From: a virus
Direction: 5' to 3' (one strand)
Virus record (IMG/VR): IMGVR_UViG_3300034190_002401
Coordinates: 1-64,000 of that record
Length of the DNA: 64,000 nucleotides
Shown here in pieces: positions 6,001-52,274 of the stretch. Positions within the stretch are counted from its first letter, which is position 1; every line of letters begins with the position of its first letter. The position numbers and the translations under genes are program-made. The notes beneath the pieces are model-generated. The model worked only from the letters and a program-made list of their open reading frames with translations, was not told the origin of the DNA and did no database searches.

Positions 6001-8389
6001 TTGTACCTACGAATGCTAGGTTGGAATTGTAGATGGCATCTCCCTCTGCTATGTTGCTGCTCTCGCTGCTAGTGCCATTGGTGGTGATGCTAGAACCACC
6101 ACCAGAGGCTTGGTCGCCATCTACAGTGATTCCAGTGGGTGTCATCGGTTTGTGGTTGATTGGTGTGAGGCTCTCGTCTAACTCGTCATCCGCCTCGTAT
6201 CCCTCACTGACATCACCTATGAGAGAGTGGTTTTCTCTCAACGACCCCTTGAGTATATTAGAATCTGTGAAGTCGATATAACCGCCAGCAGCGAACACCT
6301 CTGACCTTATGGTATTGGTTTCTATTGCGGTCTTGATTAGGCTGAAGAGAGTGGTAGTGCCGGTGACTATGGTAGAGCCAGCGGGTACTGTCTTCTCTAC
6401 CATGAGTAGAGGTTGTACGACACCGCTCATGCTAGCCCCAGTCAGGTCTATCGCATTGTAGTAGACCTTGACGAAGGGAGCGAGGTTGTAGGAAGTCAGA
6501 GCAGGTATTCTGAGAAGCGCTACCCTGCTCTTCTCACTGGGTCTGAGATGAAGCCTGCGTGTCTCTGCGTTCAGATTGTCTAGGTCTTGTGGGACAGGCC
6601 CTTTCAGCATGAAGGGGAGGTAGTCGAAACTAGGACCGCCAATCGCAATCACCTCTTTCTCTGCGTCTACCAAGCCGTTGTCGAACACGACTTGAGCCTC
6701 TGTCTTGTTGACTATCTCGTCAATCAGAACTGTTCCTTGGTCTCTGTAAACGTCAACTCTGCTGTTGATTGAAATCTGGTCGGAGATACCACCCTTGGAG
6801 ACATCGTACATCACGTCTATGATATCAGCAGAGCCGTCTATCTGCTGGTCGATTATCTCCTCCTGCGCTCTTGGCATCAATTTCAGGAAGTCATGACCGT
6901 CAACGTGGTTGAGGGCATGCCTTCCACTGTGACCGACTTGAAAGGATGCGTCTACGTCAGTGGGCCAAGTGACTGCATATGCGTTATCTGAGGTGTCTGT
7001 GGCCATTTCTGTTGAGTAGACGAAACCATGCAGAGCGAACGAACTCTCGTCAATGACCATCTGACCCGTCCTGTCTATCATTTGTGTGGAATGATGAGGT
7101 GGTTGGTATGGCCTACCACTGGCGCTGTCTATCAGCAGGTCAGCGCCGACGACCACGAAGTAGTTGTCAACCCCCGCTGTTCTGCTATGGAGAGCCTTGC
7201 GGAGTCCGTTGACCGAACTGGAGAAGTCAAGATGCACGCTGGAGACGAGGCAGTTGCCAGTCGATGTGTTGATGTTGTGAAGCCTGACTCTCTCTGGTGG
7301 TTTGTTGTTGGGCTTGAATACGTCCCTGTCTGTAGCACCGGCGTTGATGAGAAGGTTGTATGGTGTGTGAGAGACGACGTGTGTTGTTGGAGTACCTGTG
7401 TTCTGTAGGTAGTTAACGACCTTGTAGTCCCCACCTGTGTACTTGTGAGTACCTGTGCTGTCCTTTGAGAATACGTAGTTACCCGATACCGTCTCCAATC
7501 CGGTGAGTTTCTTGGCTAGTTTGACTGCATCAGCGGTACTGAGTGATATCTGGGATATGGTGACGCTCTCACCGTCCATGGTAGTGCTGTTGTCTGATAT
7601 CGAGGAGAAGGTGTAGACCTCCTCTACAGGTGCTATTGGTTCTTCAAACCTATAAAGCAGCAACGTATTATTGCTGGCTATGGGTGCAGACCTCTCTAAC
7701 GAGCCTTCCTCGAAGTTAGTGGAGATGTGTAGTGACTCCATCACACCTCGGAATTGCCCTCCCTTTCCTCCTACATACACGTGTGCGTTGCCCTTGGCTA
7801 TCTGTAGGGTTCTGTTCGGCAACTCCTTCGATGCCATCAATTCGCCATTGATGTAGAGTTCTATAGCACCAGTCCTCAATGCCGCCACTATGTGCATCAG
7901 GGGTCGTTGGTCTGTGTTGAGGGTGGTGGGGTCGTCGTATGAGCCGTTGTACTTGTTGTATGACGAGTGTATACCACCGAACTCAGAAGAGGGATAGACG
8001 ACTCCCTCGTATCCTCTACCGGATACCTTGGTCGCTGTGGATACGAAATGGTGCTCCTGTCCCGCATCAGTGTCGAGGAATATCTCGAAAGTGGCAGGAC
8101 CGGGCGTGTCTACCTCGCCTATTGACAACTTGAACTGGTCTTCCTTCTCTACTACCACACCACCGCAGTCGGGTATGACCCAAGCCTCTATGCAAATCTG
8201 GGTGTTCAGTAGACCGGATAGTGAGCCTTCTCCCTCTATGTGCTGCCTCTCACCCAGTATGTTGGCCTTCGACTTCGTTCCTGATGATGTCTCTTTTCCC
8301 AAGCGACTCATAGCGCCTTGTGGAACGACTATGCTGTCAGACACACCGTCGAAGAAGAAGGCGTGGTTTGAGCGTCCGAGTATAGGCAT
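2..8389 (-). CDS. Giant (>2796 aa, 3'-truncated) tail/adhesin protein with N-terminal LamG/ConA-like domain
   Basis: ATG at 8389 just after the upstream stop, with GTGA SD. N-terminus reads MPILGRSNHAFFFDGVSDSIVV..IEAWV..HIVA..LYINGEL..FRGVMESLHI..LLYRFEE (LamG pattern). The same frame is open at the window edge (..HILPMINNPTVMFDKAAAVDDWGG) and the track has no stop-bounded ORF in this frame. Confidence 0.85.
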   Translation of the reverse strand, partial: MPILGRSNHAFFFDGVSDSIVVPQGAMSRLGKETSSGTKSKANILGERQHIEGEGSLSGLLNTQICIEAWVIPDCGGVVVEKEDQFKLSIGEVDTPGPATFEIFLDTDAGQEHHFVSTATKVSGRGYEGVVYPSSEFGGIHSSYNKYNGSYDDPTTLNTDQRPLMHIVAALRTGAIELYINGELMASKELPNRTLQIAKGNAHVYVGGKGGQFRGVMESLHISTNFEEGSLERSAPIASNNTLLLYRFEEPIAPVEEVYTFSSISDNSTTMDGESVTISQISLSTADAVKLAKKLTGLETVSGNYVFSKDSTGTHKYTGGDYKVVNYLQNTGTPTTHVVSHTPYNLLINAGATDRDVFKPNNKPPERVRLHNINTSTGNCLVSSVHLDFSSSVNGLRKALHSRTAGVDNYFVVVGADLLIDSASGRPYQPPHHSTQMIDRTGQMVIDESSFALHGFVYSTEMATDTSDNAYAVTWPTDVDASFQVGHSGRHALNHVDGHDFLKLMPRAQEEIIDQQIDGSADIIDVMYDVSKGGISDQISINSRVDVYRDQGTVLIDEIVNKTEAQVVFDNGLVDAEKEVIAIGGPSFDYLPFMLKGPVPQDLDNLNAETRRLHLRPSEKSRVALLRIPALTSYNLAPFVKVYYNAIDLTGASMSGVVQPLLMVEKTVPAGSTIVTGTTTLFSLIKTAIETNTIRSEVFAAGGYIDFTDSNILKGSLRENHSLIGDVSEGYEADDELDESLTPINHKPMTPTGITVDGDQASGGGSSITTNGTSSESSNIAEGDAIYNSNLAFVGTIASGGIGANITLTDNRAAAVTNGEELYIGIGTNAHPNKTPQIITASHTPTTKHDSVFHKMVIEPSRSKNDSLTDKGLYFRREPSEVIQSPSNGEFDKAGTSSGTHIYEMFDIIDNQFQDDGSVRVFIQPSDRRRVNQLSGLRSQSTDFKEPNNITMMYLMSRARIRAVLDSNQSGDSFTTVRCVGLTESTVNRSVNVRGKGSPDSQVVKEIEPNAPVVTVTLGGPGQGAMDVKPTYDPSPLARLPFSTRRNMCAVGYLAVSGSGGGRIAVKPLNNNSTDLASWGTYGFPKTGRVYLQDGASARYDSKTASEFVFTDAASAGAGKFLLANGTEFTDFSSWLSATDISKGISSAEDINVSVTLFADRFFDESSLAEDGSTINDRMFQGMSDVQHDYQLGTQYASTRAMVEIPFFANQFFDDVRTGTFPGPDNSFKIHIDATHTPHTYNPSPVGRRPKGVEPADREAMSAYALNKRQNQYSPSTRITKVTSNPSGYFIRVEDIGIFPNVQQNESAAILNMAEDSNDDENYQNVDNVRNYRKMFLASGEWAYYIGTARDSSTLTVPRDNGAENWAFSSGFLDEAVVGASITTGGPSLPLEGIVPIGSDAFTPSSDFENRSEYYHDSASVKTQGGNVDYGLRQYVSAVEFKEGPESNPHAPRIVSGRAVGNVVTAAHKNLSGGNGAFINQVLITMSDEDMDLFPDLDYEDMSTYSFSSGEFLYEAETILSDGTVQKMHYYGRLTKNSISDTIAPNVLVFVYRAATTSTPPWVTNLPGKEIRLTRRVRDIFGAVDGDDGNNAALKEANNENIAKTYKPDPGGDDAWTIIAATNSATVTIQNSNGRLAGANTLGLNLRKGDLLYSEASASKILFIGTVSTIEDYDNGDYSVTLTDLAANAAADVDDVPLRLSIANAYEEDADAVLNKSWNYPYAAGGLRSGDTIWANMTINNPYATEGLFAKSRGVLNEAQVWKGFNGGVASLAASRPRESVPLENFLIGDTCLETAINYAQHVNQTVKENYKSLGLDEADAPKVAYVDPYLAEDGHARVLLYDVAHDKEFIAFQDLHMQVQTSADAVTIGRPRNMVVGSGTAPVDLAEYTATFNGGGPSWITTQIDVANGYPSENRYIRSTQQSKFIESAYSHDLANRIGTNVLTAVNGTLPSSLPPSAATSSSPGIYGKAHGHHVHTGYSIFGEANKYSMGDSVLPRTSDSTVNPFTANSDHAFARTKRSLTEAFTAALVKLRTDTSGATLRDPSTFFDTPDGTRVIPAFLCLKGIRDTPLDLTGHEESRLQHLKQWTDMDFLRRLSIDCGAVAGKSGVVSIESAAQEIVRQINQAGAPKGQIVVDKDTTGSAHDPAPFWDTDKAFSSRDRGTHMGYVRAHMGREVQDKNGNRGFTVVIHSTVPGASGRNFCVWLDNSKGQSVYQPDFLIGHGGRWRDFWALPEEKEGENMHPAPMPLNKHGRPFAPITTLTQYVNPEETGEDVISTTDFTDSDDDSSPVIRAISNALGGGQQFNTVNTESFSTIGSSSTIIQGLRVGKNSVGRVNFGGLVASGIPGFSPIAGPWGFGKKGSQSFRDTYGRSSTTVTYTTHTDANQLKSDTLGDSPIYGLKLTDHRGGNHGIRYIYRGAGLGFANDNTVLPDTISNEVCVFFDDRDMTQGGFTIGKHMRGTGDATGRMEELGTNNSSMTAKSWTGNRWRGVSAPNIAVDCEITKSSTTFTVTLQAPFDSGSGLAHHDVLGYLGFPLTNGMLQVTDSEGGDQGMTFSYTRRTQNAKDGTHQFFGLAGDELSNSFSGRYLISPVLNWTTLVTDELMAAVTTAAINATASQLTEGVNFDCTEMYATNGKTFGDMGVLPDAITIRAFDPTKNITPISDLFSASIHSDLGIQAAHVEFGEAEKTQLLSTGWAFGTSRATTDADIETNRKIACGYIPKTLLQIATRSKGPNGNTATPVLVDSLNNPVDISDWRKNLKGESFTRHSGDHILPMINNPTVMFDKAAAVDDWGG

Positions 8390-14442: not shown

Positions 14443-14783
14443 CAGTTCCTCACCTCGGCAATCGGTAGCAGTTTGCCGCCTCTGTAGTTGAAGTTGTGCT
14501 CCCTCATCTCAGGGTTTCCCTCTGTGAGCATCCTCTCATCCACTCTCTTCATCACCTTGTCTATGATTTCCTGTGATGCCGGTAGACCTGTCTTGGTGAC
14601 TGTGATTAGACCCTCGTCATTGGTCAGACCCTCGGACATCATCTCCTCCCTCTCCTTCCTCGTTCTGAGGTTGGATGGATTCTTCGTGAAGTAGTTGAGT
14701 AGTTCTGCTTGGTTCGCTATGTTCTCAGAAAAGGTGTCCCTGACTCTACCTCGCATCTCATCTCCTGCGTCGTACTTGGTCAT
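14442..14783 (-). CDS. Hypothetical protein (neck module)
   Basis: Translationally coupled ORF. Confidence 0.6.
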   Translation of the reverse strand: MTKYDAGDEMRGRVRDTFSENIANQAELLNYFTKNPSNLRTRKEREEMMSEGLTNDEGLITVTKTGLPASQEIIDKVMKRVDERMLTEGNPEMREHNFNYRGGKLLPIAEVRN

Positions 14784-20740: not shown

Positions 20741-23700
20741 CTAAACTGTTGTTGCTTCTTTATCTGGACCTGAATCTTCGTTTTTGATACCCTTATCCTT
20801 CTTTTGTTGTCGCTTCATATGTGGATACGGCTTTTCATCATCTTCTGTGGGTCTTGCCCTCATATCATAGTCAGGCAAGGTCTGCTCCCCATCTAGGGTT
20901 GTTGGTCCTCTAGGACTTTCTACACTACCACCTAGTTCTATTCCTAGTCCCTTTCCACCACTCATTGGAAAATGTCCCTTCTCTAGAACATCCAGAACCC
21001 TTACCATAACACCGATGGCTTTCTCCATCTGCGGTTTGAGCAGTTGGTTCTTTTCTGCTAAGGTCTTGGCCTTGTCCTGTACTTTCTTCTCAGGTATGGG
21101 TCTTTTCTCGACCTTGCCCTTGAGCATCATGCTAGCGACCTGAGACCAAAATGGTTTGAGACTGTCAGACAATCTGATTGAGTAGTCTGACTCACCGAAC
21201 TCCGAGAGGAGTGTGCGTGGTGAGTGTACCCAATATCCCAAGTCTGATTTTTCCAATGTGTAGAATACGTCGTTGTGAATGCACGTCTTGACAATCAAGG
21301 TGTTGTCCTCTATATCCACGTCATGCGGGAAGTGTAGATTTGGTACGGACTTGGCTAGTATGTTGAGTGTCTCCATGCTGACGCTGGACTCACCCTCTCC
21401 CTCACCCACTATCTTTACTGGATTCAAGTCGTATACTTCTCTCCCATTGATTTTCTTTCTCTTGATGCCGGTGACCTCGACCTCGACTATGTCACCCTCT
21501 TCAAATGATTTAGGGCTAGATACCGTCCCTACGTCTAGATACACCTCCCCCTCGTAGTCTACTGTGGCATTCTCTATTCCCTCATCGTCAATCAGAGGTC
21601 CTGCGCCTAGCCTGTACGTGATGCTCTTCTTGCCTCTCTTATCGAGAATCCTGAGGTTGACATTCTTGTTGGGTCTGAGTAGAACCCACTTCGGGTGTCT
21701 TTTCTCTCCCTTCATGTATGTGCTTTTACCGTCTCTGATGAGTAGGCAGTCATGTTCCTCAAGAAGTGACTTTACCGTGTCTTCCAGACCATCATCGTCA
21801 GTCATGCGTGTGTCGTGTGGTCCGGGCACAGTGACGTTGTCGTATCCATCGAACTGTCCCCTGAGTATCTTCAATCTCTCTTGAATAGTCATGTCGGTAA
21901 CATCGGTGTCATCGTAGTAGGTGATGTCGATGATGTGCAACTCGTCATCTGAGAGTATACCGTCCAAGGTGCAGTCCTTCTTTCCGAGATTATTGACACC
22001 ATCCTTGACCCAATCAGGAATGCTCATTCTTGAGTTATGCTCGTTGTACGCTGATACCTTGTCGTTTAACTTCATGACTACGACCCTCTCTCCCTCATAC
22101 CACTTGGATACCACCCAAGAGCCAGTGAAACCCCTGAGTTGCTCCATGTCCTTGAAGTTGAATATCCTGTGCATGGGTCGTATCGGTGGTACGAAGTTCG
22201 GTGTGTCATCCCCTTTCAGCATCAGTGAGTCTGGGTTGAGAAGGAAGGCTGCGTAGTCCGACGGCTCGCTGGTTGTTATAGAGAAAGGCTGAGTTGCTGG
22301 GACAGTACCGTCTGGATAGGACATGAACTGATTAGCACCAGTCATAGAGATGTTCTGGTCATCGAGGTTCTGGACTGCTGATGCAACTTCTCCCCCGAAG
22401 TGCCGTTGAATGATTGACATGGGTACTGCGTGCATAGGTTGGGGAGCGGCTGTCGGTCCTGACGTGAGTTCACCGAAGGTAGCATCGAAGGACTCGGCTG
22501 GTTTCCTGAGTCTGTGATTGCTGTGGTCCATAAGTCCTGAATACCCATAGATGTCCATGACGGGTGAGCCTTGTACTCCTATAGGGTGCAAATCCCTTGC
22601 TCCGAATCCTATGGTCTCACTCTCAATCATAGCAGGTGACGATGACAGGTCGAAGTTGGGGTCATGCACGAAGAGGTCCTTACTCGCATGTTGGATGTAG
22701 TCTGCTCTTCTTTTCAAATCACCACCCTCTGCTTGACCACTTCGTCGTGCTTTGATTGGTTTATTGGAGAGCAGAGAGCGTCTTTCCTTACCCCTACCTA
22801 TCTCAGGGGCTGCGAAGTACGTCAGACCTAGATTGTCCTGAACCTCCTTGGGAAGGCTGTTGACCTGACCCCTGAGTCCTCTTATCTGTGATTCTATGCG
22901 CTTTGTGTATCCAAGCCTTTCATCTCTGGAATGTTTGTACTTCTTCTCGTACTCCTCGTCGGAGAGCGTTTGGTCTCTAGAAGAAGCGAATAATTTACCA
23001 GCATGGTCGTGCATGTGTTCTATATCATCGTACCCTAAGAACATCCGTTGGTCCTTTCCTGCGTATAACTCAGGTGGGTTTGTAGTCATGGAGTTGAGGG
23101 ACATCAGTACCCTGTGGTCATCCTCGTTGTTCGGGTCGAGTGATGCCTTTATCGAGTCCAGCACGTTTCCGTAGTGCGCTGAGTGATTACCATCCTCACC
23201 CATGCCTAGGTGTTTCACTAGGTCGTCTAGGGTTGTTTTCGAGTCTACTCTGAATCCGTGCTCTCGCATGTGCTCTGGTAGTCTGTGTAGGCCAGTCCTC
23301 TGCAATGGCGTTTCTATTTTATCTAAACCATGCTCCATCACCTTGAGGTTGTTTGTCCAAGTCTCACCGTTGGGTAGTTCTATCTCCGCTCCCCTCGGTA
23401 GGTGCATCAAGACCATGTTGGCATCCCTGAACAGGCCGTCAATCTCCGCATCCAAGTTGGGGTTGTCAGGGCTGAACGTGCCCTCTGGTTTGAGTTGCCT
23501 GAGAACCATCGCCATCTGTTCTATTGCTTTATGATGGGATTGTATCCTACTCATGTGCTGTCTCATGAGCGTACCTCCCATTCTGTCCTCTAGACCAAAG
23601 TGTGTTAGGAACTCCTCAACCGCCTCATCGTCTCCTGTCCTAGCACCGAATGACGGGAGATTCAACTTGAGGCTGGCTGGTGTCAAACCGAGCATACCAA

Positions 23701-26233
23701 CGGGTCTCCCATCAGTTCCTCTTCCCATCATGGTTGCTATGGAATGAGACCAGAGATGCTGGAACTTGGAAACTTGGTCTGGGTCTATCTTCTCCTCGTA
23801 ACTATCCTGCACGTTTTCCCCTGTCGGTAACTCCTCACCCACTCCTATGGTTGATGCTAGGTTCGTAGCGCCTATGTCTGCCTCTTTCTTGACTGACCTC
23901 TTGTACCCCTTGCCGTGCGGTATTCTTGAGTTGGTAGCACCTGAAGAGTACTGAGGTTTATTGATTCTGTAGTTCTTATTGTACTTCTCCACTAATTCCT
24001 CATCTGTCATTCTGGATATGACGTTGACCAGACCGGGTGATAGATGTGACAGGTTTGCCAGAATCTGGTTCTTCGGGGTTGTACCCTTTATCCCATTAAC
24101 CTGAGACTGTCCGTACTTAGATAGTATATTTGCTGGGGTGTTGAAGACACCACGCTTGTGATTGAGGAAAGGTGCAATCATTCCTATGTTGAACTCATTG
24201 GGTGTTATGCGCTCACCATCTACCATCCCTAGATGACTCTCACCCTCTGCGTTTGAGAAGTGCCTGAAAATCATCTCCATCAACGTGTGTGGGTTTCTAC
24301 CAAGACCACCAGCAGCGAAGGCCGGAGCGAAGAAAGCACCTAGGCCGTAGTGACCTGTGCTATCGGGAATCCTCAGGTCCTGCATGACCTCGGCCATCTC
24401 CGGGTCAATCTCGGACTCATCGAAGTACAGACCTCCATGTAGGAGCATGTCGTTGCGTATGTCCTTGGCATCCTTGCCTAGGTCTCCTTGGGACTTGGCT
24501 TTGGCGAGCACCGACATGAGCGTGTCCCTGTCGAGCAGAGGACCTGAGAAGTTGGGATAGTGATGGTTGTCATCCTCGCTCATCTCAGTCATGTCCTCGT
24601 TGTATCCCAATGCGTAGAGAATCTCCTTCTTGGATAGCCTATCTCCGTGACCTGTCCCTATTATGTCGTTGATGGACTTGTCATAGTGAGAGGCTATGGC
24701 ATCCTCCTCGGATGCACCCTTGTTCTTCTTCTGGTATCCCTTGATTGACCTATCACTGTGCTTCGACAACTTGGGTAGGTGGTTGAACTCCTTGTGTGCC
24801 TTGCCGGTCTCCTTGTGGAAATGACCATCCTTGTCAAGGCCGTTCTCATCATTGGCTTTGACGAACTCCAGACCCAGAGCCTCTCTGAGATTGTTGTGTA
24901 TGGTATCCCTATGCTCGAAATCGTCATCATGTACTATATCGTGAAGCGCTGCGAAGAACTCGTCTTTCTGGTTGTCAGAGAGTTGCTCTTCGTTGTTCTC
25001 CTTATGGGGTATGACGTTCTCATTCGTGAAACCATGCTGCCTGCCACCCCAGTTGGACATCGCATTGAGTATGTGCTGTGTTGACCTCTTTATCCTCCCA
25101 GCGGATACCGTAGTGCCGTCTGGTAGTTTGATGTCTTGGTTTCCCACCTTGTCCAACCCATCCTGCATCTTGTTCATTATCGCTGTCCTCTCTCTGGGGG
25201 AGAACCACTGTAGTTGGTGTATGAAACCACCAAGACCCAGATTGTATCCGTGGTCGATAGTCTCCGCTGGTGGCATCTTGCCTTCCTTGTCTGCTAGTGC
25301 GTAGTCGAAGGGTTGCTCCTTGACCTCGGTATCCACGTGCTTGTGATTCCAACTCCTAGCCCTGTCGTCTGCGTGTAGTTTCCTGAGAGCCAGTTCCTCC
25401 TGCGAGTGGAAATGACCTTCTGGTATCTCGTCTGACAGCCCCTCTGCTCTGGCATCTGCGATAGAGCCTGTCCTCCAAGACCCGTCGTGGTCCACCTCAC
25501 CAGTCTCAGGGTTGATGCTCTTCCATTCCTCGTCACCACTGAGCCAGCGCTGGTAGTCCCTCTCGTACACGTCATGCATGGTCTTGAGCGATACGTCCTT
25601 CAAACCACCAAGAGGACCGAGACCGTGGAAGTTCCTGACTGTGTTGCCCTCTAGGTCCAACTTCTGCATTCCCTTGTGGTGTGGGCTGCCCTTCTTCCTG
25701 AGCATCTTGTCTTGCGCATGCTCCACAGCCGCTGATATCTTTCCGTGGGTCTTGTGGTTGGTGAGCGTGGGTAGCATCTGCCTGACCATCAAATCGTCCC
25801 TGACTGAGCGCCCTGATGGTAGCATTCTCTTCGATGGGTCGTAGAAACTGCTGAAGGGGTTGGACTTCGAGTCACCGTAGGGTGCTAGACCAATATCTGC
25901 GACCTCAAGGTCGTGATGGTGCGAAGTCCCTCTTCTCTTGACCCTGCCTCTCCAAGGTTGAGTCTTGGAGAGATGCTGCTGGTTCTGCTCGGCTTGCATG
26001 GCTAGGAATTGCTGTTTCGGTATGTATCCTTTACCACTGTAAGTCATTTTTCTGACGAAGGAGTTGCATATGTTCTCCTTCCAAGTAATGTCATTGGTGA
26101 AGCCATCCTGCTCCATCACCGCTTTGGCGATGACGTACTCCTCTATACTCTCATCTACGTCTAATCCGTCTAGAATACTAAGCAGGAGTTGTTCTCTTGC
26201 CTTCACGAACGTGGATACTGAGTCTTCATACAC
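20741..26233 (-). CDS. 1830-aa head-module protein with degenerate ATP-dependent DNA-ligase-like domain
   Basis: SKWYEGER, LDGIL, IIDITYYD..ERLKIL, LLIRDGKSTY..KWVLLR and an OB-like region; catalytic residues altered. Confidence 0.7.
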   Translation of the reverse strand: MYEDSVSTFVKAREQLLLSILDGLDVDESIEEYVIAKAVMEQDGFTNDITWKENICNSFVRKMTYSGKGYIPKQQFLAMQAEQNQQHLSKTQPWRGRVKRRGTSHHHDLEVADIGLAPYGDSKSNPFSSFYDPSKRMLPSGRSVRDDLMVRQMLPTLTNHKTHGKISAAVEHAQDKMLRKKGSPHHKGMQKLDLEGNTVRNFHGLGPLGGLKDVSLKTMHDVYERDYQRWLSGDEEWKSINPETGEVDHDGSWRTGSIADARAEGLSDEIPEGHFHSQEELALRKLHADDRARSWNHKHVDTEVKEQPFDYALADKEGKMPPAETIDHGYNLGLGGFIHQLQWFSPRERTAIMNKMQDGLDKVGNQDIKLPDGTTVSAGRIKRSTQHILNAMSNWGGRQHGFTNENVIPHKENNEEQLSDNQKDEFFAALHDIVHDDDFEHRDTIHNNLREALGLEFVKANDENGLDKDGHFHKETGKAHKEFNHLPKLSKHSDRSIKGYQKKNKGASEEDAIASHYDKSINDIIGTGHGDRLSKKEILYALGYNEDMTEMSEDDNHHYPNFSGPLLDRDTLMSVLAKAKSQGDLGKDAKDIRNDMLLHGGLYFDESEIDPEMAEVMQDLRIPDSTGHYGLGAFFAPAFAAGGLGRNPHTLMEMIFRHFSNAEGESHLGMVDGERITPNEFNIGMIAPFLNHKRGVFNTPANILSKYGQSQVNGIKGTTPKNQILANLSHLSPGLVNVISRMTDEELVEKYNKNYRINKPQYSSGATNSRIPHGKGYKRSVKKEADIGATNLASTIGVGEELPTGENVQDSYEEKIDPDQVSKFQHLWSHSIATMMGRGTDGRPVGMLGLTPASLKLNLPSFGARTGDDEAVEEFLTHFGLEDRMGGTLMRQHMSRIQSHHKAIEQMAMVLRQLKPEGTFSPDNPNLDAEIDGLFRDANMVLMHLPRGAEIELPNGETWTNNLKVMEHGLDKIETPLQRTGLHRLPEHMREHGFRVDSKTTLDDLVKHLGMGEDGNHSAHYGNVLDSIKASLDPNNEDDHRVLMSLNSMTTNPPELYAGKDQRMFLGYDDIEHMHDHAGKLFASSRDQTLSDEEYEKKYKHSRDERLGYTKRIESQIRGLRGQVNSLPKEVQDNLGLTYFAAPEIGRGKERRSLLSNKPIKARRSGQAEGGDLKRRADYIQHASKDLFVHDPNFDLSSSPAMIESETIGFGARDLHPIGVQGSPVMDIYGYSGLMDHSNHRLRKPAESFDATFGELTSGPTAAPQPMHAVPMSIIQRHFGGEVASAVQNLDDQNISMTGANQFMSYPDGTVPATQPFSITTSEPSDYAAFLLNPDSLMLKGDDTPNFVPPIRPMHRIFNFKDMEQLRGFTGSWVVSKWYEGERVVVMKLNDKVSAYNEHNSRMSIPDWVKDGVNNLGKKDCTLDGILSDDELHIIDITYYDDTDVTDMTIQERLKILRGQFDGYDNVTVPGPHDTRMTDDDGLEDTVKSLLEEHDCLLIRDGKSTYMKGEKRHPKWVLLRPNKNVNLRILDKRGKKSITYRLGAGPLIDDEGIENATVDYEGEVYLDVGTVSSPKSFEEGDIVEVEVTGIKRKKINGREVYDLNPVKIVGEGEGESSVSMETLNILAKSVPNLHFPHDVDIEDNTLIVKTCIHNDVFYTLEKSDLGYWVHSPRTLLSEFGESDYSIRLSDSLKPFWSQVASMMLKGKVEKRPIPEKKVQDKAKTLAEKNQLLKPQMEKAIGVMVRVLDVLEKGHFPMSGGKGLGIELGGSVESPRGPTTLDGEQTLPDYDMRARPTEDDEKPYPHMKRQQKKDKGIKNEDSGPDKEATTV

Positions 26234-46168: not shown

Positions 46169-47098
46169 TTATGTCACAGCCACCTTGTCTTGCCAATCGA
46201 AAAGGCGATTGTCTATATTTCTTGAAACCGTATTTCTGTCACCGAACATCATACGTTGAGTTGCCTCATCATATTCCGGCTCATCCCCCATGAAGACAGG
46301 TGCGGACTCCTCGTCTCCGACATGCCAAGCCGATAGGTACGGGGTATCGCCCATTTGAGCCATTATCGCTTGATTTAGTTTATTCAACTCAGGTACTTGC
46401 CTAGCAGCAGAATCCAGTTTCTCGTTGAATCTCTGCCAAACGGGGGGACGACTAATCCTTGAACTTCGCTCAGGATGCAAGACGTAATCCACACCAGCAT
46501 TGGCGAGCAACTCATTCAAATTGTTCATTCTCATGTGGCCCGGAGAAGAAGTGTATGCGCTTTCCAGTTGCTGTGCCCTCTCCATGGCACTTGCTGGCGA
46601 TATGTTCGACCCCTCTGCCAATCTCTGTACGACAGGCGATTCGATATCATTCAACGGCCCTCCATGGTCAAACGCCCTCCTACCGAGATTCAACACGGAA
46701 TCGTCGTTGAATGACACTGGCATCTCGAAGCGACCTATCCGCCTTGGCTTCGCGGGGTCTCTCCATGCTTCGGAGTATTGCTGGGCGGTTATCCTCTGTG
46801 GGCTAAAGTACCTCTTTGGGTATTTGTCGCCTATCTTGAGTTCAGGCTCATCTTTCGACATAGACCTAAAGACGCTAGGGGTTCTAGCAGTCGGATACGT
46901 CGGTCTGTTGGTGATGTCCCGCATGGCTTCCCTGAGTATCCTACTGTATCTGTCCCTGTCGCTATCACTGGCAAGACTAGCGAGAAGGCCATAATCCACA
47001 GCCTTCAGCAGAGACCACGCTTGGTCGAAGGGCGTGCTGACAGGCGACTTGCCGATGCGTGCAGCCATGCTTTTACCGACAACGCCTCCTGCCAACAC
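46169..47098 (-). CDS. Protein with PFDQAWSLLKA motif and possible ART-like domain
   Basis: VFRSM..RYFSPQRITAQQYS resembles ART core strands. Confidence 0.55.
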   Translation of the reverse strand: MLAGGVVGKSMAARIGKSPVSTPFDQAWSLLKAVDYGLLASLASDSDRDRYSRILREAMRDITNRPTYPTARTPSVFRSMSKDEPELKIGDKYPKRYFSPQRITAQQYSEAWRDPAKPRRIGRFEMPVSFNDDSVLNLGRRAFDHGGPLNDIESPVVQRLAEGSNISPASAMERAQQLESAYTSSPGHMRMNNLNELLANAGVDYVLHPERSSRISRPPVWQRFNEKLDSAARQVPELNKLNQAIMAQMGDTPYLSAWHVGDEESAPVFMGDEPEYDEATQRMMFGDRNTVSRNIDNRLFDWQDKVAVT

Positions 47099-47190
47099 GC
47101 TAGAGGGGAGGGGGGCTGGATTATTGATTTTTTTCTGTAATTTTTTTTCGGGAAAGGGCCTTCCACCGAAAAAATGGTGCAGCGCTGTGT

Positions 47191-47289
47191 GCGACTAAAA
47201 GATGCGATTAACCGTTGCGATTAACATCGCCTCCGGCGATTAACCCTGCGATTAACCCCGCGATTAACTGTTTTCAGGGTGCGATTAAC
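47191..47289 (+). repeat. GCGATTAAC direct-repeat array (6 perfect, 1 degenerate)
   Basis: Copies at 47204, 47217, 47236, 47248, 47260 and 47281; GCGACTAAA at 47191. Confidence 0.95.
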
Positions 47290-47373
47290 TAGGCCACTGG
47301 GGATACAAGTATCCCAACACATGTGTGTACACACGTGAACGTACCGTTCCAAGGAACGGAACGTTTAGACTAG

Positions 47374-47390
47374 GGCTTTCCCATTTAAAG
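47374..47390 (+). promoter_or_regulatory. Early promoter copy 1 (GGCTTTCCCATTTAAAG)
   Basis: TTTAAA starts 26 nt before ATG 47410. Confidence 0.8.
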
Positions 47391-47409
47391 TCTCAACACA
47401 TGAGAGTCG

Positions 47410-48165
47410 ATGGCCAAGAAATCAGACATCCTAAGAAGCATAAAGACGACCGCCGAGTTCCTAGGGAACTCAGACAGACCTTCGGTCTGTACTCTCAGAG
47501 TAGACTCATTGTCTACTCTAAAGAGGAACACCAAAGGTGTTCAATACACAAGGAAAAGCCTTAGGGCTTTTGCCAAAGCAGTACTGACGGAACGTCAGTC
47601 CTTCAGAGAAGGTATCTACATCCTTAAGGATGTAAACATCAAGGCTCTGAAAGACTCTCAACTCGGAGAGTTGCTTTCGGCTACTAACCCCAATGGGGAT
47701 AGTAAGTATTACACCACAGTCCGAAGGATGACCTATCAGAACATCCTTGCTGATGCCATAGCATCAGCAGAAGAAGAAGATGAGCCTGAGGCAAAGCCTC
47801 AGAAGAAGACAACCAAGAAGGCTAGGAAGCCTAAGGCTTCCAAGAAGCCTAAACTCACACCTGTTGAAGAGGAACTCTTCGATGAGGATGGCAACCTTGA
47901 CCCTCAGCCAAAGGCTGAAGCAAAGCCAAAGGCTACCAAGCCAAAGGCTTCCAAGGTCAAGAAAGCAGTACCCAAAGGTACTGTCACCTTGACTGCCGTT
48001 ATCAACGGCAAGAAGAGAGAAGCCACACTGCCAAAGGCAGACTGGGAAGGAAGCAACCACTCCCAATGGGAGTTCAAGGCTGATTCCAGAGACATCCCTA
48101 CCAAAGGTAGGAGCAAGAAAGAACTTGCAGTGCTCGTTGGAGTCCATGACTCCATCTTCGAGTGA
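47410..48165 (+). CDS. First early gene; Lys/Pro/Ala-rich protein
   Basis: 251 aa, leaderless behind the promoter, KPKA repeats. Confidence 0.75.
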   Translation: MAKKSDILRSIKTTAEFLGNSDRPSVCTLRVDSLSTLKRNTKGVQYTRKSLRAFAKAVLTERQSFREGIYILKDVNIKALKDSQLGELLSATNPNGDSKYYTTVRRMTYQNILADAIASAEEEDEPEAKPQKKTTKKARKPKASKKPKLTPVEEELFDEDGNLDPQPKAEAKPKATKPKASKVKKAVPKGTVTLTAVINGKKREATLPKADWEGSNHSQWEFKADSRDIPTKGRSKKELAVLVGVHDSIFE

Positions 48166-48688
48166 ATCGAAGATTCCAACACACAAGTGTTCGGACATAC
48201 GTAAGTGTTGGAGAGTGAGTCTAACGACTCGCTCTTCAGCATGCCAACTGACCTGTGCTCCCACGTGTTAGAACACACACAGGTTGCCCCCCAAAAAAAA
48301 CGTCAAACTCCGAGAGGCATAGCCTCCCAGTGCTTTGGCTTATCAATGCCTAGCCTTCGGCTTAGGCTTCTTCTCCAGCACATACGTGTGTTGAACACGT
48401 GCTGGTATACATCTACACATATACGTATACGTGAATACGTGTTGCCTTTCCTGTGTGTTGGATACCTTTGGTATAACTATCCAACTGTCTAACTGTATTG
48501 TCTATACAATAGACTGTACATACATATATGTAGAGACTACAATGAAACTTGTATTCTTAGACACATGTATATTGTATGAATGAACCATCGGACTATTGAA
48601 CATGAGACACATCAACATGCACGCAGGAAGGAAATGGAATACGTATGATTGGAATCGTTTAACACTCATGCAATAGAATCAACTTCGT

Positions 48689-48710
48689 GGCTTTCCCATT
48701 TAAAGGAACA
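48689..48710 (+). promoter_or_regulatory. Early promoter copy 2
   Basis: GGCTTTCCCATTTAAAGGAACA; TTTAAA 26 nt before ATG 48725. Confidence 0.85.
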
Positions 48711-48724
48711 TAATAGTAGCAGCG

Positions 48725-49012
48725 ATGCCGATGGTAATCAGTGTAAACAAAAACGAAAGAAGCCCTGCTAACGAATGCCGATATCCCAACACGATTGTTG
48801 TAAGACCGAGGTCTGACTTCCGTATGTTGGGAAGTGGAATCTCAGTGTCGAGTTCCAAAACATACACAGCAATTGACGCTGTCAATCAGCCAGACTGGAA
48901 GACCAGAGGTTTGGTCTTCATCTTAGATGCCGAAGGAGATACAACTAACTTGGGTTTCCTGATTGACAAACACGACTATGTTGTGGTCGATGATGATGAG
49001 GTGGTTCAATGA
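48725..49012 (+). CDS. Hypothetical protein
   Basis: Behind promoter; ATGA overlap with the next gene. Confidence 0.7.
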   Translation: MPMVISVNKNERSPANECRYPNTIVVRPRSDFRMLGSGISVSSSKTYTAIDAVNQPDWKTRGLVFILDAEGDTTNLGFLIDKHDYVVVDDDEVVQ

Positions 49013-49914
49013 GTATTGAACACACGAGACTTCTGACAACCTCCCGTAAGAGATGGGTTGGACTGGAGTACTCCACTCTAGTGGACAAGATGAAGTGGGT
49101 TGATGTCCCAACACACATAGGTGAATGGCTGGAAGCCATTGGTGGGACTTGGGACTTGGGTTGGACTATGCCGAAGGGCTTGACCAGTTTCATGGCTGAC
49201 AAAGACATGTCCGTGTCCCAACTTGATACTGTGTTGAAGTGGTTCGTTGACCACAGTGGTCACTGCTTCACGTATTACTGCCGGAACGAACATCCGTTTG
49301 GTAGGAGATACAGAATGTCGAAGAAGCCATTTACACACAAGTCTCACAACTACTCTGCAAAGGGATTGGCTGGAACCATCCAAGACAACCAGTTCTATGT
49401 GAACACAAGTGTGTTCGGTGATGGTGCTATCACCATGGACAATGCAACACTCAAGGATTGGTACAACCAAGTGTTGGTTGATTTGCCCAAGGCGAGGTTG
49501 CAAATGTTGTTAGCAAACGACAACGAGAAAGTTGAGCAAGTGACAAGCAACTATGCAGACCTTGCGGTCTACGACTCGAAACTGAGCAAGAGACTGGCGG
49601 AGTTAGACATACACAAGTTGCTGAAGGTGACCATTGAGAGCCACTTCGACAACATGCTCCACGAGAGTTGGGACATGCATCCGTTGGCTAAGGCCGATGA
49701 CTTCGTGGCGACACTCAAGAGTGACTACTTGATTGACACACAGAGCATGTCCTTCGATGAGCAGATTGAGAAGGTCAAGGCTGCCAACACACAGGTGAAG
49801 CAACTCGGAGCGAGCGTGTTCAGCAACATACTTGCGATTGAGTCAGCCAAGGAACAGGCACTGGCTAGCATAGCCAGTCTAGCAACTACAACACAGGAGA
49901 GTGAAGAGGAATGA
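49009..49914 (+). CDS. Hypothetical protein
   Basis: 301-aa coupled ORF. Confidence 0.75.
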   Translation: MSIEHTRLLTTSRKRWVGLEYSTLVDKMKWVDVPTHIGEWLEAIGGTWDLGWTMPKGLTSFMADKDMSVSQLDTVLKWFVDHSGHCFTYYCRNEHPFGRRYRMSKKPFTHKSHNYSAKGLAGTIQDNQFYVNTSVFGDGAITMDNATLKDWYNQVLVDLPKARLQMLLANDNEKVEQVTSNYADLAVYDSKLSKRLAELDIHKLLKVTIESHFDNMLHESWDMHPLAKADDFVATLKSDYLIDTQSMSFDEQIEKVKAANTQVKQLGASVFSNILAIESAKEQALASIASLATTTQESEEE

Positions 49915-52274
49915 GCATTGAGAAGATGATGAATATGGAAAAGAACACACAGGTGATTGAGATGAACGACGAACACAAGACATACACAGACGAAGACACG
50001 TGGAACACACACAGGTTGAAACTGGTGAAGTCACAGAAGGCTATCGCCTTAGACCACTACCGGGACTTCGGCAAGTCTTACGCAGGCTACCGTGTTCCCA
50101 AGACGCTCTACGTGTTGGTTGACGACGACCCTTGGGAGGTTGTCAAGTGGTGTGAGTCTACCATATCAGTGGACACTGATATCTTCGTGAGGACTTGCCC
50201 TCTCAATCCAAGGCACGGCGTGTTGGAAAGCACGAGGTGTGCCAACCACAAGAATGCCATAGTCAAGACGATTCAACACCTACAGGCAGTCATGTTGGAA
50301 CACGACCCTGAGGGTTGCTTGATTGTTCAGCCTTACCAACCTGCGATTGCCTCGTGTGTCCTTGCTCCGAACATGTATGTTGTATTCGGTGAGGGTCACG
50401 ACGGAGTGACTGCCGGAACTAACTACTCTGACGCAGGTACATCTCTGATGTTCCCGCTATCAGAGAAAGACCGTGTGTTTGAGGGAGCACTCGTCAAGAT
50501 GAGCCTTGGAAGTGGACACATATACAATACCGACAAGCATGAGATTGAGATGGTCTTCAACGATGAGGAGCATTACAACAGACAGTGGGGTGACGATTAC
50601 ATCAATTCGGTCAAGGCAATACTCACACAGATACGTGGGTGTGACGAACACATACAGGTTGGGACACCACCGGAAGGAGTCAGCATCAACGGCTCTATCC
50701 CCTCTGGGGATGTAGTGGTGACTGAGACTGTGGTCATGACTGGACTTGAACAAGTCCAGTGGCTTGAGGAGAACATCACGAAGGAACTTTGTCCTGATGG
50801 CTTCGTTGTCGTTGAGCCTAACGGCTCTCTGTTGAGTCACATCAACGCACACTGCCGAACACATGGCATCCCGTATGTCATAACAGACGAGGTGTGTGTT
50901 GGAGACACATGGACTGAGGTTGCTTCGGGATGGGTCATTCAGAACAATGACGGTGACTTCGTTGCCAATCCATACAACCCTTGGCAACACGTCAGTGCGT
51001 TCAGGGATGGGGTGACATACGGCAATGCACATTGGAACAGGAAGCAGTCAGCATTGTCTACGTTCTTCCATCAGTGGATGGGTCAGCCTTGCAACGACCC
51101 ACAACTCAGTGCGTTCCTTGGTGGTGTGTTCTGTGCATGGATTGTCAAAGCCACAATCGGTGCGACTGTTGGAGAGATGAGACACGCTAGGTCTCAGAAG
51201 AAGAACTACCGAGTCACCATACCACTGGCCACCAACTCGTTCATGGGTGTTGAACCCATGGATGATTGGGACATGGACAGTGGGATTGGGATACCTAACA
51301 GTCGAACACCATACCACCGATGGATGAGAGACACCATCGTGGATTGGGAACAGGCATCGCACCTTCTGACATACATGCATGACGAATACAAGACCGGTTG
51401 GTCATCAGCCTACGGTGGGCCGAAGTGGGGAGACGGAGCGGAGAAAGGTGCTCGTGTTGCAACACTCATACACCAACTCGTGAGTGCATCAGATGACGTG
51501 TTGGAAGACGTGGGCAAGGAACTGGTCGAAGCAGTCAACGCCTTGGAGAATGCACAGCACAACAACGGTGGTCTACTGAACAAGTTCGGTGGTGATACCA
51601 TGACTCACTTCAATGCTGGAACACATGGCTACGCAGAGAGTGAGATGAGGCATGCTCTTCACTCATACATGATTGCGATGGACATCGTGAACGACCGTGT
51701 TGAGACAAACGCACGGGAATGCAACATACTATGGGGAGATGTCGTTGCCTTCCTCGGCAAGAGTCCTTCGTACTTCAGGAACAACCCTGTGTTCAAACAC
51801 ACGGATGCACCCAAGGATGTTCAGGTTGTCCTTGACAAGTGGAACGAGACCGGAGACCTAACACACATGTTCCACGGCGACTCAAACCACCAGTACAACA
51901 AGACTGGCCACGAGTCTTACATCCCTACGGGACACAGTTGTGATGGTTCAGACACACATCACTTCAACAAGGTGAGCATGCAGGCCAACAAGTCCGTGCC
52001 TTCCAACACATACGACGTGTTCCTGCTTGGGAAGCAACAGACGCAGGTTATCAAGGTCGAGTCAGATGTGGTCAAGAGTGTGAAGAAATTACAGGCACTG
52101 GTCGGCAACGACTGGAATCTATCGAACTTGATAGCACAAGTCTGTCAACACGTAGAGGATGGAACATGGGAAGAAGTCGAACACTTGTGGGCTACGTATG
52201 TGTATGGACTTGAGACGAGTGAGTTCGTGACATACATGAACGCATTGAAACTAGCACAGGAGATGAAACAATGA
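49911..52274 (+). CDS. PEP-synthase/PPDK-like dikinase (ATP-grasp-like, His swivel domain, unknown C-terminal domain)
   Basis: GSLLSHINAHCRTHGIPYV matches the phospho-His motif; FVRTCP, IVQPY and GEGHDGVTAG resemble the PPDK N-domain. Confidence 0.7.
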   Translation: MSIEKMMNMEKNTQVIEMNDEHKTYTDEDTWNTHRLKLVKSQKAIALDHYRDFGKSYAGYRVPKTLYVLVDDDPWEVVKWCESTISVDTDIFVRTCPLNPRHGVLESTRCANHKNAIVKTIQHLQAVMLEHDPEGCLIVQPYQPAIASCVLAPNMYVVFGEGHDGVTAGTNYSDAGTSLMFPLSEKDRVFEGALVKMSLGSGHIYNTDKHEIEMVFNDEEHYNRQWGDDYINSVKAILTQIRGCDEHIQVGTPPEGVSINGSIPSGDVVVTETVVMTGLEQVQWLEENITKELCPDGFVVVEPNGSLLSHINAHCRTHGIPYVITDEVCVGDTWTEVASGWVIQNNDGDFVANPYNPWQHVSAFRDGVTYGNAHWNRKQSALSTFFHQWMGQPCNDPQLSAFLGGVFCAWIVKATIGATVGEMRHARSQKKNYRVTIPLATNSFMGVEPMDDWDMDSGIGIPNSRTPYHRWMRDTIVDWEQASHLLTYMHDEYKTGWSSAYGGPKWGDGAEKGARVATLIHQLVSASDDVLEDVGKELVEAVNALENAQHNNGGLLNKFGGDTMTHFNAGTHGYAESEMRHALHSYMIAMDIVNDRVETNARECNILWGDVVAFLGKSPSYFRNNPVFKHTDAPKDVQVVLDKWNETGDLTHMFHGDSNHQYNKTGHESYIPTGHSCDGSDTHHFNKVSMQANKSVPSNTYDVFLLGKQQTQVIKVESDVVKSVKKLQALVGNDWNLSNLIAQVCQHVEDGTWEEVEHLWATYVYGLETSEFVTYMNALKLAQEMKQ

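Follow-up and report, generated by a model that had tools for sequence, protein, structure and literature searches.

Conserved perfect mini-hairpins with a DNA-type pairing rule tile a protein gene at the head of a marine phage replication module

As one strand of a virus genome, the stretch analysed here (the window; 64,000 nucleotides, positions 1 to 64,000 of IMG/VR virus record IMGVR_UViG_3300034190_002401) makes up the first 64 kb of a phage genome assembled as a single 85,458-bp contig. Near 47.4 kb the window carries a protein gene of 251 amino acids (aa), hereafter the hairpin gene, whose coding sequence is at the same time densely tiled with short, perfect inverted repeats. The hairpins that these repeats can form are far denser than the protein sequence requires and are kept in every orthologue by paired substitutions. 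The gene, its product and the array are as follows (window coordinates, unless stated otherwise).

47410–48165, + strand: protein-coding open reading frame (ORF) of 251 aa, supported by 79 homologues, by diversity at the three codon positions and by a structural model.
Residues 1–122, 123–186 and 187–251 of its product: N-domain, disordered acidic and K-P-A-rich linker, and C-domain in an AlphaFold2 (AF2) model.
47455–48161, no strand assigned: array of 21 perfect hairpins with stems of 6–9 bp and loops mostly of 3 nt.

Hairpins were counted as perfect inverted repeats with a stem of at least 6 bp and a loop of at most 6 nt. By this rule there are 25 of them within 47300–48161, which agrees with the original prediction, made from the letters of the sequence, of about 25 inverted repeats; all 14 of the hairpins that it quoted (14/14) lie exactly where it had placed them. 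The bin 47001–48000 contains 22 inverted repeats, compared with a genome mean of 2.6 per kb. The ORF itself holds 21 perfect hairpins, 15 of them with stems of at least 7 bp, and 44% of its length is covered by hairpins. Synonymous-codon shuffles (n=1000) yielded a mean of 3.0 ± 1.7 hairpins and a maximum of 10 (for stems of at least 7 bp, a mean of 1.0 and a maximum of 5), and permutation of whole codons yielded a mean of 1.0. Among the 95 ORFs of the genome this one has the highest hairpin z-score, so that the excess holds both against codon-shuffled sequence and against the rest of the genome, the two comparisons that the original prediction had named. Folded as a single strand and compared with dinucleotide shuffles, the ORF gives z values of -13.9 as + strand DNA, -10.5 as - strand DNA and -10.3 as + strand RNA.

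The typical hairpin has the form 5'-C(NAA)G-3' at its tip, and no two stem sequences are alike. Loops of 3 nt are found in 12 of the 21 hairpins of the ORF, and in a loop-centred alignment of the 17 hairpins with odd loops the NAA loop and the C-G pair that closes it are the sole recurrent features, with an information content below 0.5 bit elsewhere. Stems begin in all three codon phases (7, 5 and 9 hairpins per class), and the KPKA repeats of the protein are themselves hairpins (AAGCCTAAGGCTT), as had been noticed together with the 251-aa ORF. Of the unique hairpins, 64% have an effective loop of 3 nt, and 83 of 160 are closed by C-G; on the + strand the loops are A- or purine-rich (AAA 25, GAA 11, GGA 6, versus TTT 0 and TTC 1). 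Perfection is close to all-or-none: 160 unique hairpins are perfect and 11 have a single mismatch, none of which (0/11) is of the transition type, G.T or A.C. The description of the stems as pure Watson-Crick helices with loops mostly of 3 nt is thus confirmed.

The ORF is a genuine, translated protein gene and encodes an orphan two-domain protein. Its 79 homologues, from marine metagenomes, share 47–95% identity and have indels in multiples of three, and nucleotide diversity at codon positions 3, 1 and 2 decreases in that order both in stems (0.236, 0.172, 0.110) and outside them (0.403, 0.256, 0.203); this order, together with the two folded domains of the model, argues that the ORF is truly coding. 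The AF2 model has a mean pLDDT (predicted local distance difference test) of 70.7, with residues 124–186 below 50. No match to the region or the protein turned up among 50,697 phage records with blastn and tblastn, Pfam and PHROGs gave nothing meaningful for the protein or for those encoded next to it, no PDB or BFVD entry reached E <= 0.001 in Foldseek, and the ESM Atlas gave no usable match. A profile search of 1.84 billion representatives found six clusters only, so the protein family is narrow and confined to the marine phage lineage. In a wide search with VIA-align, residues 207–251 (45 residues) weakly resemble the SAP/Rho-N helix-extended-helix (Z 5.0, below the tool's noise level), a lead rather than a finding.

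Conservation of the hairpins was followed in 23 orthologous loci from marine metagenomes, with covariation assessed on an alignment of 19. All 23 loci contain 18–25 perfect hairpins in the ORF versus 2–3 in their own shuffles, and hairpin positions are retained down to 51% protein identity. In the 19-sequence alignment, 23 helices comprising 141 pairs are 90.8% paired, compared with 32–42% when the partner is slid by 1–3 columns. Two-sided changes are seen in 42 of the 141 pairs, versus 19.1 ± 2.5 in shuffles (0/500 reach 42) and 7–13 in the slid controls. Orthologues that keep the protein but lose the stems would have counted against the original prediction; those examined keep the stems, and do so by compensatory changes. 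In many cases the paired changes replace amino acids in the stretches encoded by both arms: AGAGTAGAC/GTCTACTCT, for example, becomes AGGGTAGTTA/TAACTACCCT or AGAGTCTCTAA/TTAGAGACTCT, and the protein changes from DSLST to VNLTT or SNLET. In about one third of the family the N-domain is split by a 51-nt in-frame insertion (protein PRDWTSTCPKTGKVTSGTTTG; alignment columns 223–273; seen, for example, in L002 5001–5798) that is built of two or three perfect hairpins (GGACAAGTACTTGTCC, CCAGTGGTACTACCACTGG), so that new sequence entering the hairpin gene is also hairpin-shaped. The enrichment tracks the gene and about 110 bp upstream of it; a gradient set by distance from 47.3 kb was rejected as an explanation, as the orthologue clade L020–L024 has no enrichment downstream of the gene.

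Whether paired bases tolerate wobble separates RNA-type from DNA-type pairing, and an internal control for this is available about 40 nt past the stop codon, in the 3' untranslated region (3'UTR) of the same sequences:

48205–48242, + strand: 17-bp RNA-type helix in the 3'UTR with four to six conserved G.U pairs.

In the ORF stems of the orthologues, Watson-Crick pairs number 2285, G.T pairs 62 (2.4%) and A.C pairs 68 (2.6%); in the 3'UTR helix, taken from 10 of the same orthologue loci, the corresponding counts are 131, 39 (23%) and 0, and the contrast in wobble is strong (Fisher p = 1e-21). The control helix is predicted in full on the + strand alone (the prediction for the - strand has 5 of its pairs) and shows one-sided changes between GU and GC or AU, and RNAalifold assigns the 3'UTR region -77.1 kcal/mol on the + strand versus -68.0 on the - strand. 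The RNA-type signature, G.U far above A.C, is found in this helix only and is absent from the ORF stems; with G.U allowed, RNAalifold found no further local, G.U-rich helices in the ORF, and Rfam returned nothing at E <= 1 for 46500–49500. As G.T is no commoner than A.C in the ORF stems, wobble, which is harmless in RNA, is no better tolerated there; and as G.T on one DNA strand is A.C on the other, this pattern fits DNA hairpins or cruciforms and not ordinary RNA structure. In short, the hairpins exist, are conserved, and follow a DNA-type pairing rule. The DNA-level code that had been proposed for them is thereby favoured in so far as G.T is not preferred over A.C beside a G.U-rich 3'UTR helix, while nuclease-resistant mRNA, the alternative then mentioned, stays its main rival.

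The array lies within a series of conserved elements that run from the T-run/A-run element upstream of the gene to a terminator-like hairpin downstream:

47120–47200, no strand assigned: near-invariant T-run/A-run element, with an imperfect hairpin at 47142–47174, between divergent modules.
47204–47289, + strand: six direct copies of GCGATTAAC, exact at 47204, 47217, 47236, 47248, 47260 and 47281.
47300–47315, no strand assigned: palindrome U1, GGGATAC-aa-GTATCCC, non-coding, upstream of the promoter motif.
47323–47334, no strand assigned: palindrome U2, GTGTGTACACAC, non-coding, upstream of the promoter motif.
47338–47365, no strand assigned: palindrome U3, AACGTACCGTTCC-AA-GGAACGGAACGTT, non-coding, upstream of the promoter motif.
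47373–47394, + strand: first of seven 22-bp promoter-like motifs, GGCTTTCCCATTTAAAGGAACA, with a variant 3' half.
47395–47454, + strand: hairpin-free leader and first 15 codons (translation initiation region), stem-free in the window and in all orthologues.
48164–48176, + strand: hairpin GAATC-GAA-GATTC overlapping the stop codon.
48250–48285, + strand: longer-range helix CCTGTG...CACAGG, conserved, with the compensatory change CCCATG...CATGGG.
48348–48376, + strand: terminator-like hairpin whose loop is C(TTCG)G, with TTCTTCTCC behind it; its core AGCCTTCGGCT is invariant in orthologues.

The T-run/A-run element is more conserved than coding sequence, even in the orthologue with 51% protein identity; it resembles a bidirectional terminator, yet sits between divergent modules. 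The repeat GCGATTAAC has no other copy in the genome on either strand, three of its copies are spaced 12 nt apart, and all 15 of the orthologue loci with upstream sequence (15/15) have at least four copies; by their sequence these repeats look iteron- or operator-like. The arrangement that marks iteron origins, at least three direct repeats beside an AT-rich stretch, is present here as the six GCGATTAAC copies and the T- and A-runs at 47120–47175, and from its position the region at 47.1–47.4 kb looks like a control hub, possibly a replication origin. Both U1 (GGCTAAC/GTTAGCC, GGGTTAC/GTAACCC, AGGCTAC/GTAGCCT) and U3 (ATCGTTGT/ACAACGT, ACGTTTC/GAAACGT) covary in orthologues. Copies of GGCTTTCCCATTTAAAGGAACA, all on the + strand, begin at 47373, 48688, 53312, 57126, 60613, 64111 and 67570 (the last two in genome coordinates), each about 25–40 nt ahead of a start codon, and the motif is conserved upstream of orthologues; no gene for a phage RNA polymerase that could read it was recognised in the genome. 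Consensus scans for sigma-70 promoters and terminators were uninformative except for the hairpin at 48348, which by its sequence probably ends the transcript of the hairpin gene.

Within the gene, the first stem begins at alignment column 46 in almost all orthologue sequences. The hairpin at the stop codon has GAA, AAA, AGA, GGA or ATA loops in orthologues and, in one clade, the covarying stem GAGAC/GTCTC. Beyond it, some 0.5 kb (48166–48690) is highly conserved, lacks a credible ORF and contains, besides the two helices at 48205–48242 and 48250–48285 and the terminator-like hairpin proper (48348–48367), many CAACAC/GTGTTG and ACACGTGT motifs; this segment may hold regulatory sites or a small RNA.

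At a larger scale, the genome is divided into two gene sets that diverge at 47.1–47.4 kb and converge near 83.6 kb: the - strand carries head, portal and terminase genes, and the + strand carries genes for an SNF2 helicase, a clamp loader, a family-B DNA polymerase and exonucleases, as well as a weak primase match (PHROG, E 1.9e-5). The junction of the contig is crossed by a 2803-aa ORF on the - strand and by further - strand ORFs with coherent gene order, and this continuity indicates a circular assembly that reveals no physical ends (closure being judged from gene order across the junction, not from a repeated end). The closest terminase among phage records, from Bacteroides phages, has just 27% identity; the phage is a new marine lineage, and the stretch is found in seawater, estuary and sediment metagenomes of several studies. 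Cumulative GC skew turns at the divergence point, where gene orientation turns too, so that the two are confounded. The hairpin gene is the first + strand gene past this point, heads the replication-gene module and has its own promoter-like motif; its description as the first early gene is an extrapolation from these features. Relatives are represented in three RNA libraries of two studies by short contigs of low depth, but these cover late genes as well as the hairpin gene and so do not demonstrate its expression.

Several other ORFs deserve mention. The next large + strand gene (49009–49914; 301 aa, no known family) has the second-highest hairpin excess of the genome, 9 versus 2.0 ± 1.3, with four hairpin positions kept in closer orthologues (59–69% identity) and none in a distant clade (30–36%). 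Directly behind it, a 787-aa + strand protein (49911–52274) has no Pfam, PHROG or PDB sequence match. The 2803-aa - strand ORF (window 2–8389 plus genome 85436–85458) has Laminin_G_3 as its sole recognised domain, and neither it nor an 1830-aa ORF between the protease and portal genes (20741–26233) has a PHROG or PDB relative.

A second gene of the same kind was verified in the mycobacteriophage Patience, whose gene 47 (JN412589, 38753–39469) contains 20 perfect hairpins, versus 4.4 ± 1.7 in codon shuffles. In 14 of the 20 the loop is C-GAA-G, the same loop as in d(GCGAAGC), a DNA mini-hairpin of very high stability. Like the marine gene, gene 47 has triloops closed by C-G and encodes a protein (here about 240 aa) with A/K/P-rich stretches; it is the first gene past the lysis genes, behind a 400-bp gap. 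It differs in that its loops are mostly GAA, whereas those of the marine phage are mostly AAA or NAA, and in that all Patience genes point in the same direction. The Patience hairpins run about 200 nt past the stop codon of gene 47 (14466–14670 in coordinates of the Patience locus), and one of them has an 11-bp stem, GGCGCAACTCA-gaa-TGAGTTGCGCC. Homology between gp47 and the marine 251-aa protein was considered and rejected (hhalign probability 0.1). The gp47 protein is detected early in infection only (PMC4324244); the same paper notes the raised GC content of the gene (62% versus 50%) and leaves hairpins unmentioned, with 0 occurrences of 'palindrom' or 'stem-loop' (PMC4324244).

The best explanation of these observations is that the stretch is dual-coded, being a protein gene and, superimposed on it, a series of about 21 (about 25 with the flanks) position-conserved perfect mini-hairpins. 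From the pairing rule, together with the 3-nt loops closed by C-G and the covarying palindromes upstream of the promoter motif, we infer, with a probability of roughly 0.45, that the hairpins are selected as DNA structure, either extruded or in single-stranded DNA, rather than as ordinary RNA structure. What they are for is a matter of hypothesis. If the duplex were underwound or opened, whether by gyrase, by divergent transcription starting here or by melting at the adjacent AT-rich/iteron region, the inverted repeats could flip out, as a hairpin on one strand or as a cruciform on both, and together they could absorb and hold unwinding across about 0.9 kb. Acting in cis, such an array might switch or time the first transcription unit through DNA topology, or else help to unwind DNA for a replication start nearby; this is our best guess. 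A physical precedent for extrusion exists in the promoter hairpins of phage N4, which have a like geometry and extrude at physiological supercoiling: with Mg2+, a superhelical density of -0.035, which is sub-physiological, is sufficient (PMC4496689).

Several points weigh against selection as DNA. The dense array falls within a single transcription unit, bounded by the motif at 47373 and the terminator-like hairpin at 48348; this unit has a real RNA helix in its 3'UTR and hence a message with certain structure; and the translation start region is kept hairpin-free, which means that mRNA folding matters at least there. The sense-strand loops are purine- and A-rich, a bias not expected of a function that is purely double-stranded and symmetric, though it may stem from lysine codons. 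In addition, U1–U3 could lie within a longer transcript leader, stems of 6–9 bp are costly to extrude from duplex DNA, and the ideas of an origin and a timer have position as their sole ground.

Most of these points favour a structure at the mRNA level, a reading that we consider possible but doubtful, in which the message of the first-expressed gene would be folded nearly end to end against endoribonucleases, Rho loading or RNA-guided targeting, with the ribosome-loading region left open. The promoter-like motif and terminator-like hairpin that flank the array, the G.U-containing 3'UTR helix, the start region free of stems in all orthologues and the purine-rich sense-strand loops all suit it, as do the RNA fold z of -10.3, an enrichment that is gene-specific rather than positional and the low-depth contigs of relatives in three RNA libraries, though late genes are present there too. 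What speaks against it is above all the intolerance of wobble (G.T 2.4% and A.C 2.6%, versus 23% G.U in the 3'UTR helix), but also the dominance of triloops, stable RNA hairpins usually having tetraloops, the GAA triloops instead of GNRA tetraloops in Patience gp47, and the covariation of U1 and U3 upstream of the promoter motif. Arms that are Watson-Crick only are the expected product of copying, and quasi-palindromes could have been made perfect repeatedly by intrastrand template switching or arm-to-arm conversion, without benefit to the phage, as the Nematomorpha authors proposed for hairworm mitochondria (PMC6649704). The binary pattern of 160 perfect versus 11 single-mismatch unique hairpins, with no transition-type mismatch, agrees with such a by-product, yet the effect is limited to one gene and its flanks in an 85-kb genome, hairpin positions are kept to 51% protein identity and not gained and lost, the adjacent 17-bp 3'UTR helix keeps its G.T pairs unconverted, and an unrelated gene at the equivalent place in Patience has the same pattern. 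That two unrelated genes at equivalent map positions bear the same overprint favours function, and we regard a copying by-product as unlikely.

Slightly less likely still is that each hairpin is a start signal on single-stranded DNA, be it an N4-like promoter, a single-strand initiation or primase site, or a plasmid-type single-stranded DNA promoter. Its geometry is that of N4 promoters (stems of 5–7 bp, loops of 3 nt), the array adjoins iterons and an AT-rich element, the purine-rich loops are on one strand, and the weak PHROG match suggests a phage primase; but N4 promoters share sequence from -17 to +1 where these hairpins have in common just the NAA loop and the C-G pair that closes it. 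Neither the 2803-aa nor the 1830-aa protein was recognised as a virion RNA polymerase, 21 start sites within one ORF are without precedent, and synthesis from hairpins whose purine loops lie on the template strand would proceed in the antisense direction relative to the gene. A T5-like signal, for entry or for a stop in injection at the genome end that enters first, is very unlikely: a resemblance to the palindrome-rich T5 region and the place of the gene at the head of its module are all that point to it, while the gene map is continuous round the circle, the Patience analogue is mid-genome (at 38.7 kb in a linear genome of 70.5 kb), and the array is coding whereas the T5 region is non-coding. 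Dyad-symmetric sites for one or more dimeric DNA-binding proteins, the other DNA-level role first suggested, have perfect symmetry and nearby regulatory repeats in their favour; but the stem sequences all differ and covary instead of staying conserved, the signature of base pairing and not of sequence read-out, and we discount this reading most of all.

If the hairpins act as DNA, they would be the second, and far more extensive, case of small extruded phage DNA hairpins after the three N4 promoters, and would tie DNA topology to the first minutes of infection. More broadly, we suggest tentatively that unrelated phages, the marine phage and Patience, have independently overprinted the first gene of an early or replication module with about 20 extrudable DNA mini-hairpins, as a general and undescribed cis-acting code of DNA topology (a supercoil-triggered switch or timer, or an unwinding element) that dictates amino acids of the overlapped protein. 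Across the whole gene, selection for nucleic-acid folding overrides selection on the protein sequence, with DNA-type pairing rules. In such genes neither synonymous sites nor even amino-acid replacements can be taken to evolve independently, which affects both annotation and evolutionary analysis. As Patience is a cultivable phage with a verified analogue, the question is directly testable at the bench.

A full-text literature search found no description of such hairpin-tiled genes in phages, and the known systems each resemble the array in part. The T5 injection-stop region is a palindrome-rich stretch linked with the earliest phase of infection; what defines it is how far it lies from a mapped terminus, and unlike the array it is non-coding. 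The N4 early promoters have 5–7 bp stems and 3-nt purine-containing loops, are extruded from supercoiled duplex and are used at the start of infection, and they need, besides the virion RNA polymerase, conservation of the sequence from -17 to +1, within which a GC-rich heptamer has its centre at -11 (PMC4496689). The hairpins described here (stems of 6–9 bp, 12 of 21 loops of 3 nt) are like them in small-hairpin geometry; by contrast, N4 has three promoters, upstream of genes and read base by base, and the marine phage has about 21 sequence-diverse hairpins inside an ORF. Membership of the N4 class fails, since the hairpins have no -17 to +1 sequence in common, so that of the analogy originally drawn with N4 the geometry stands, while the shared sequence is missing and no virion polymerase was detected. 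The N4 virion RNA polymerase has 3,500 aa; neither the 2803-aa and 1830-aa nor other large ORFs gave a Pfam or PHROG match to such an enzyme or a PDB sequence match, although a very divergent one would escape these searches.

Origins that lie at initiator genes offer another comparison. The lambda ori lies inside gene O, and iteron plasmids such as RSF1010 have hairpin single-strand initiation sites; the marine locus similarly combines direct repeats, an AT-rich stretch and structured DNA overlapping coding sequence, at the place where orientation and GC skew turn, though replication origins are not known to carry about twenty hairpins of unrelated sequence. Among published cases, the nearest are the coding palindromes of hairworm (Nematomorpha) mitochondria, described in 2019 (PMC6649704): these are perfect inverted repeats inside functional genes, with both arms coding and almost no excess of imperfect repeats. 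The hairworm repeats are up to 284 bp long, scattered, and gained and lost between species, and their authors suspect a by-product of maintenance (PMC6649704). The repeats of the marine phage also lie in a gene under protein-level selection, but they are neither long nor gained and lost: their stems, of 6–11 bp, are densely tiled in one gene and fixed in position family-wide, with compensatory changes.

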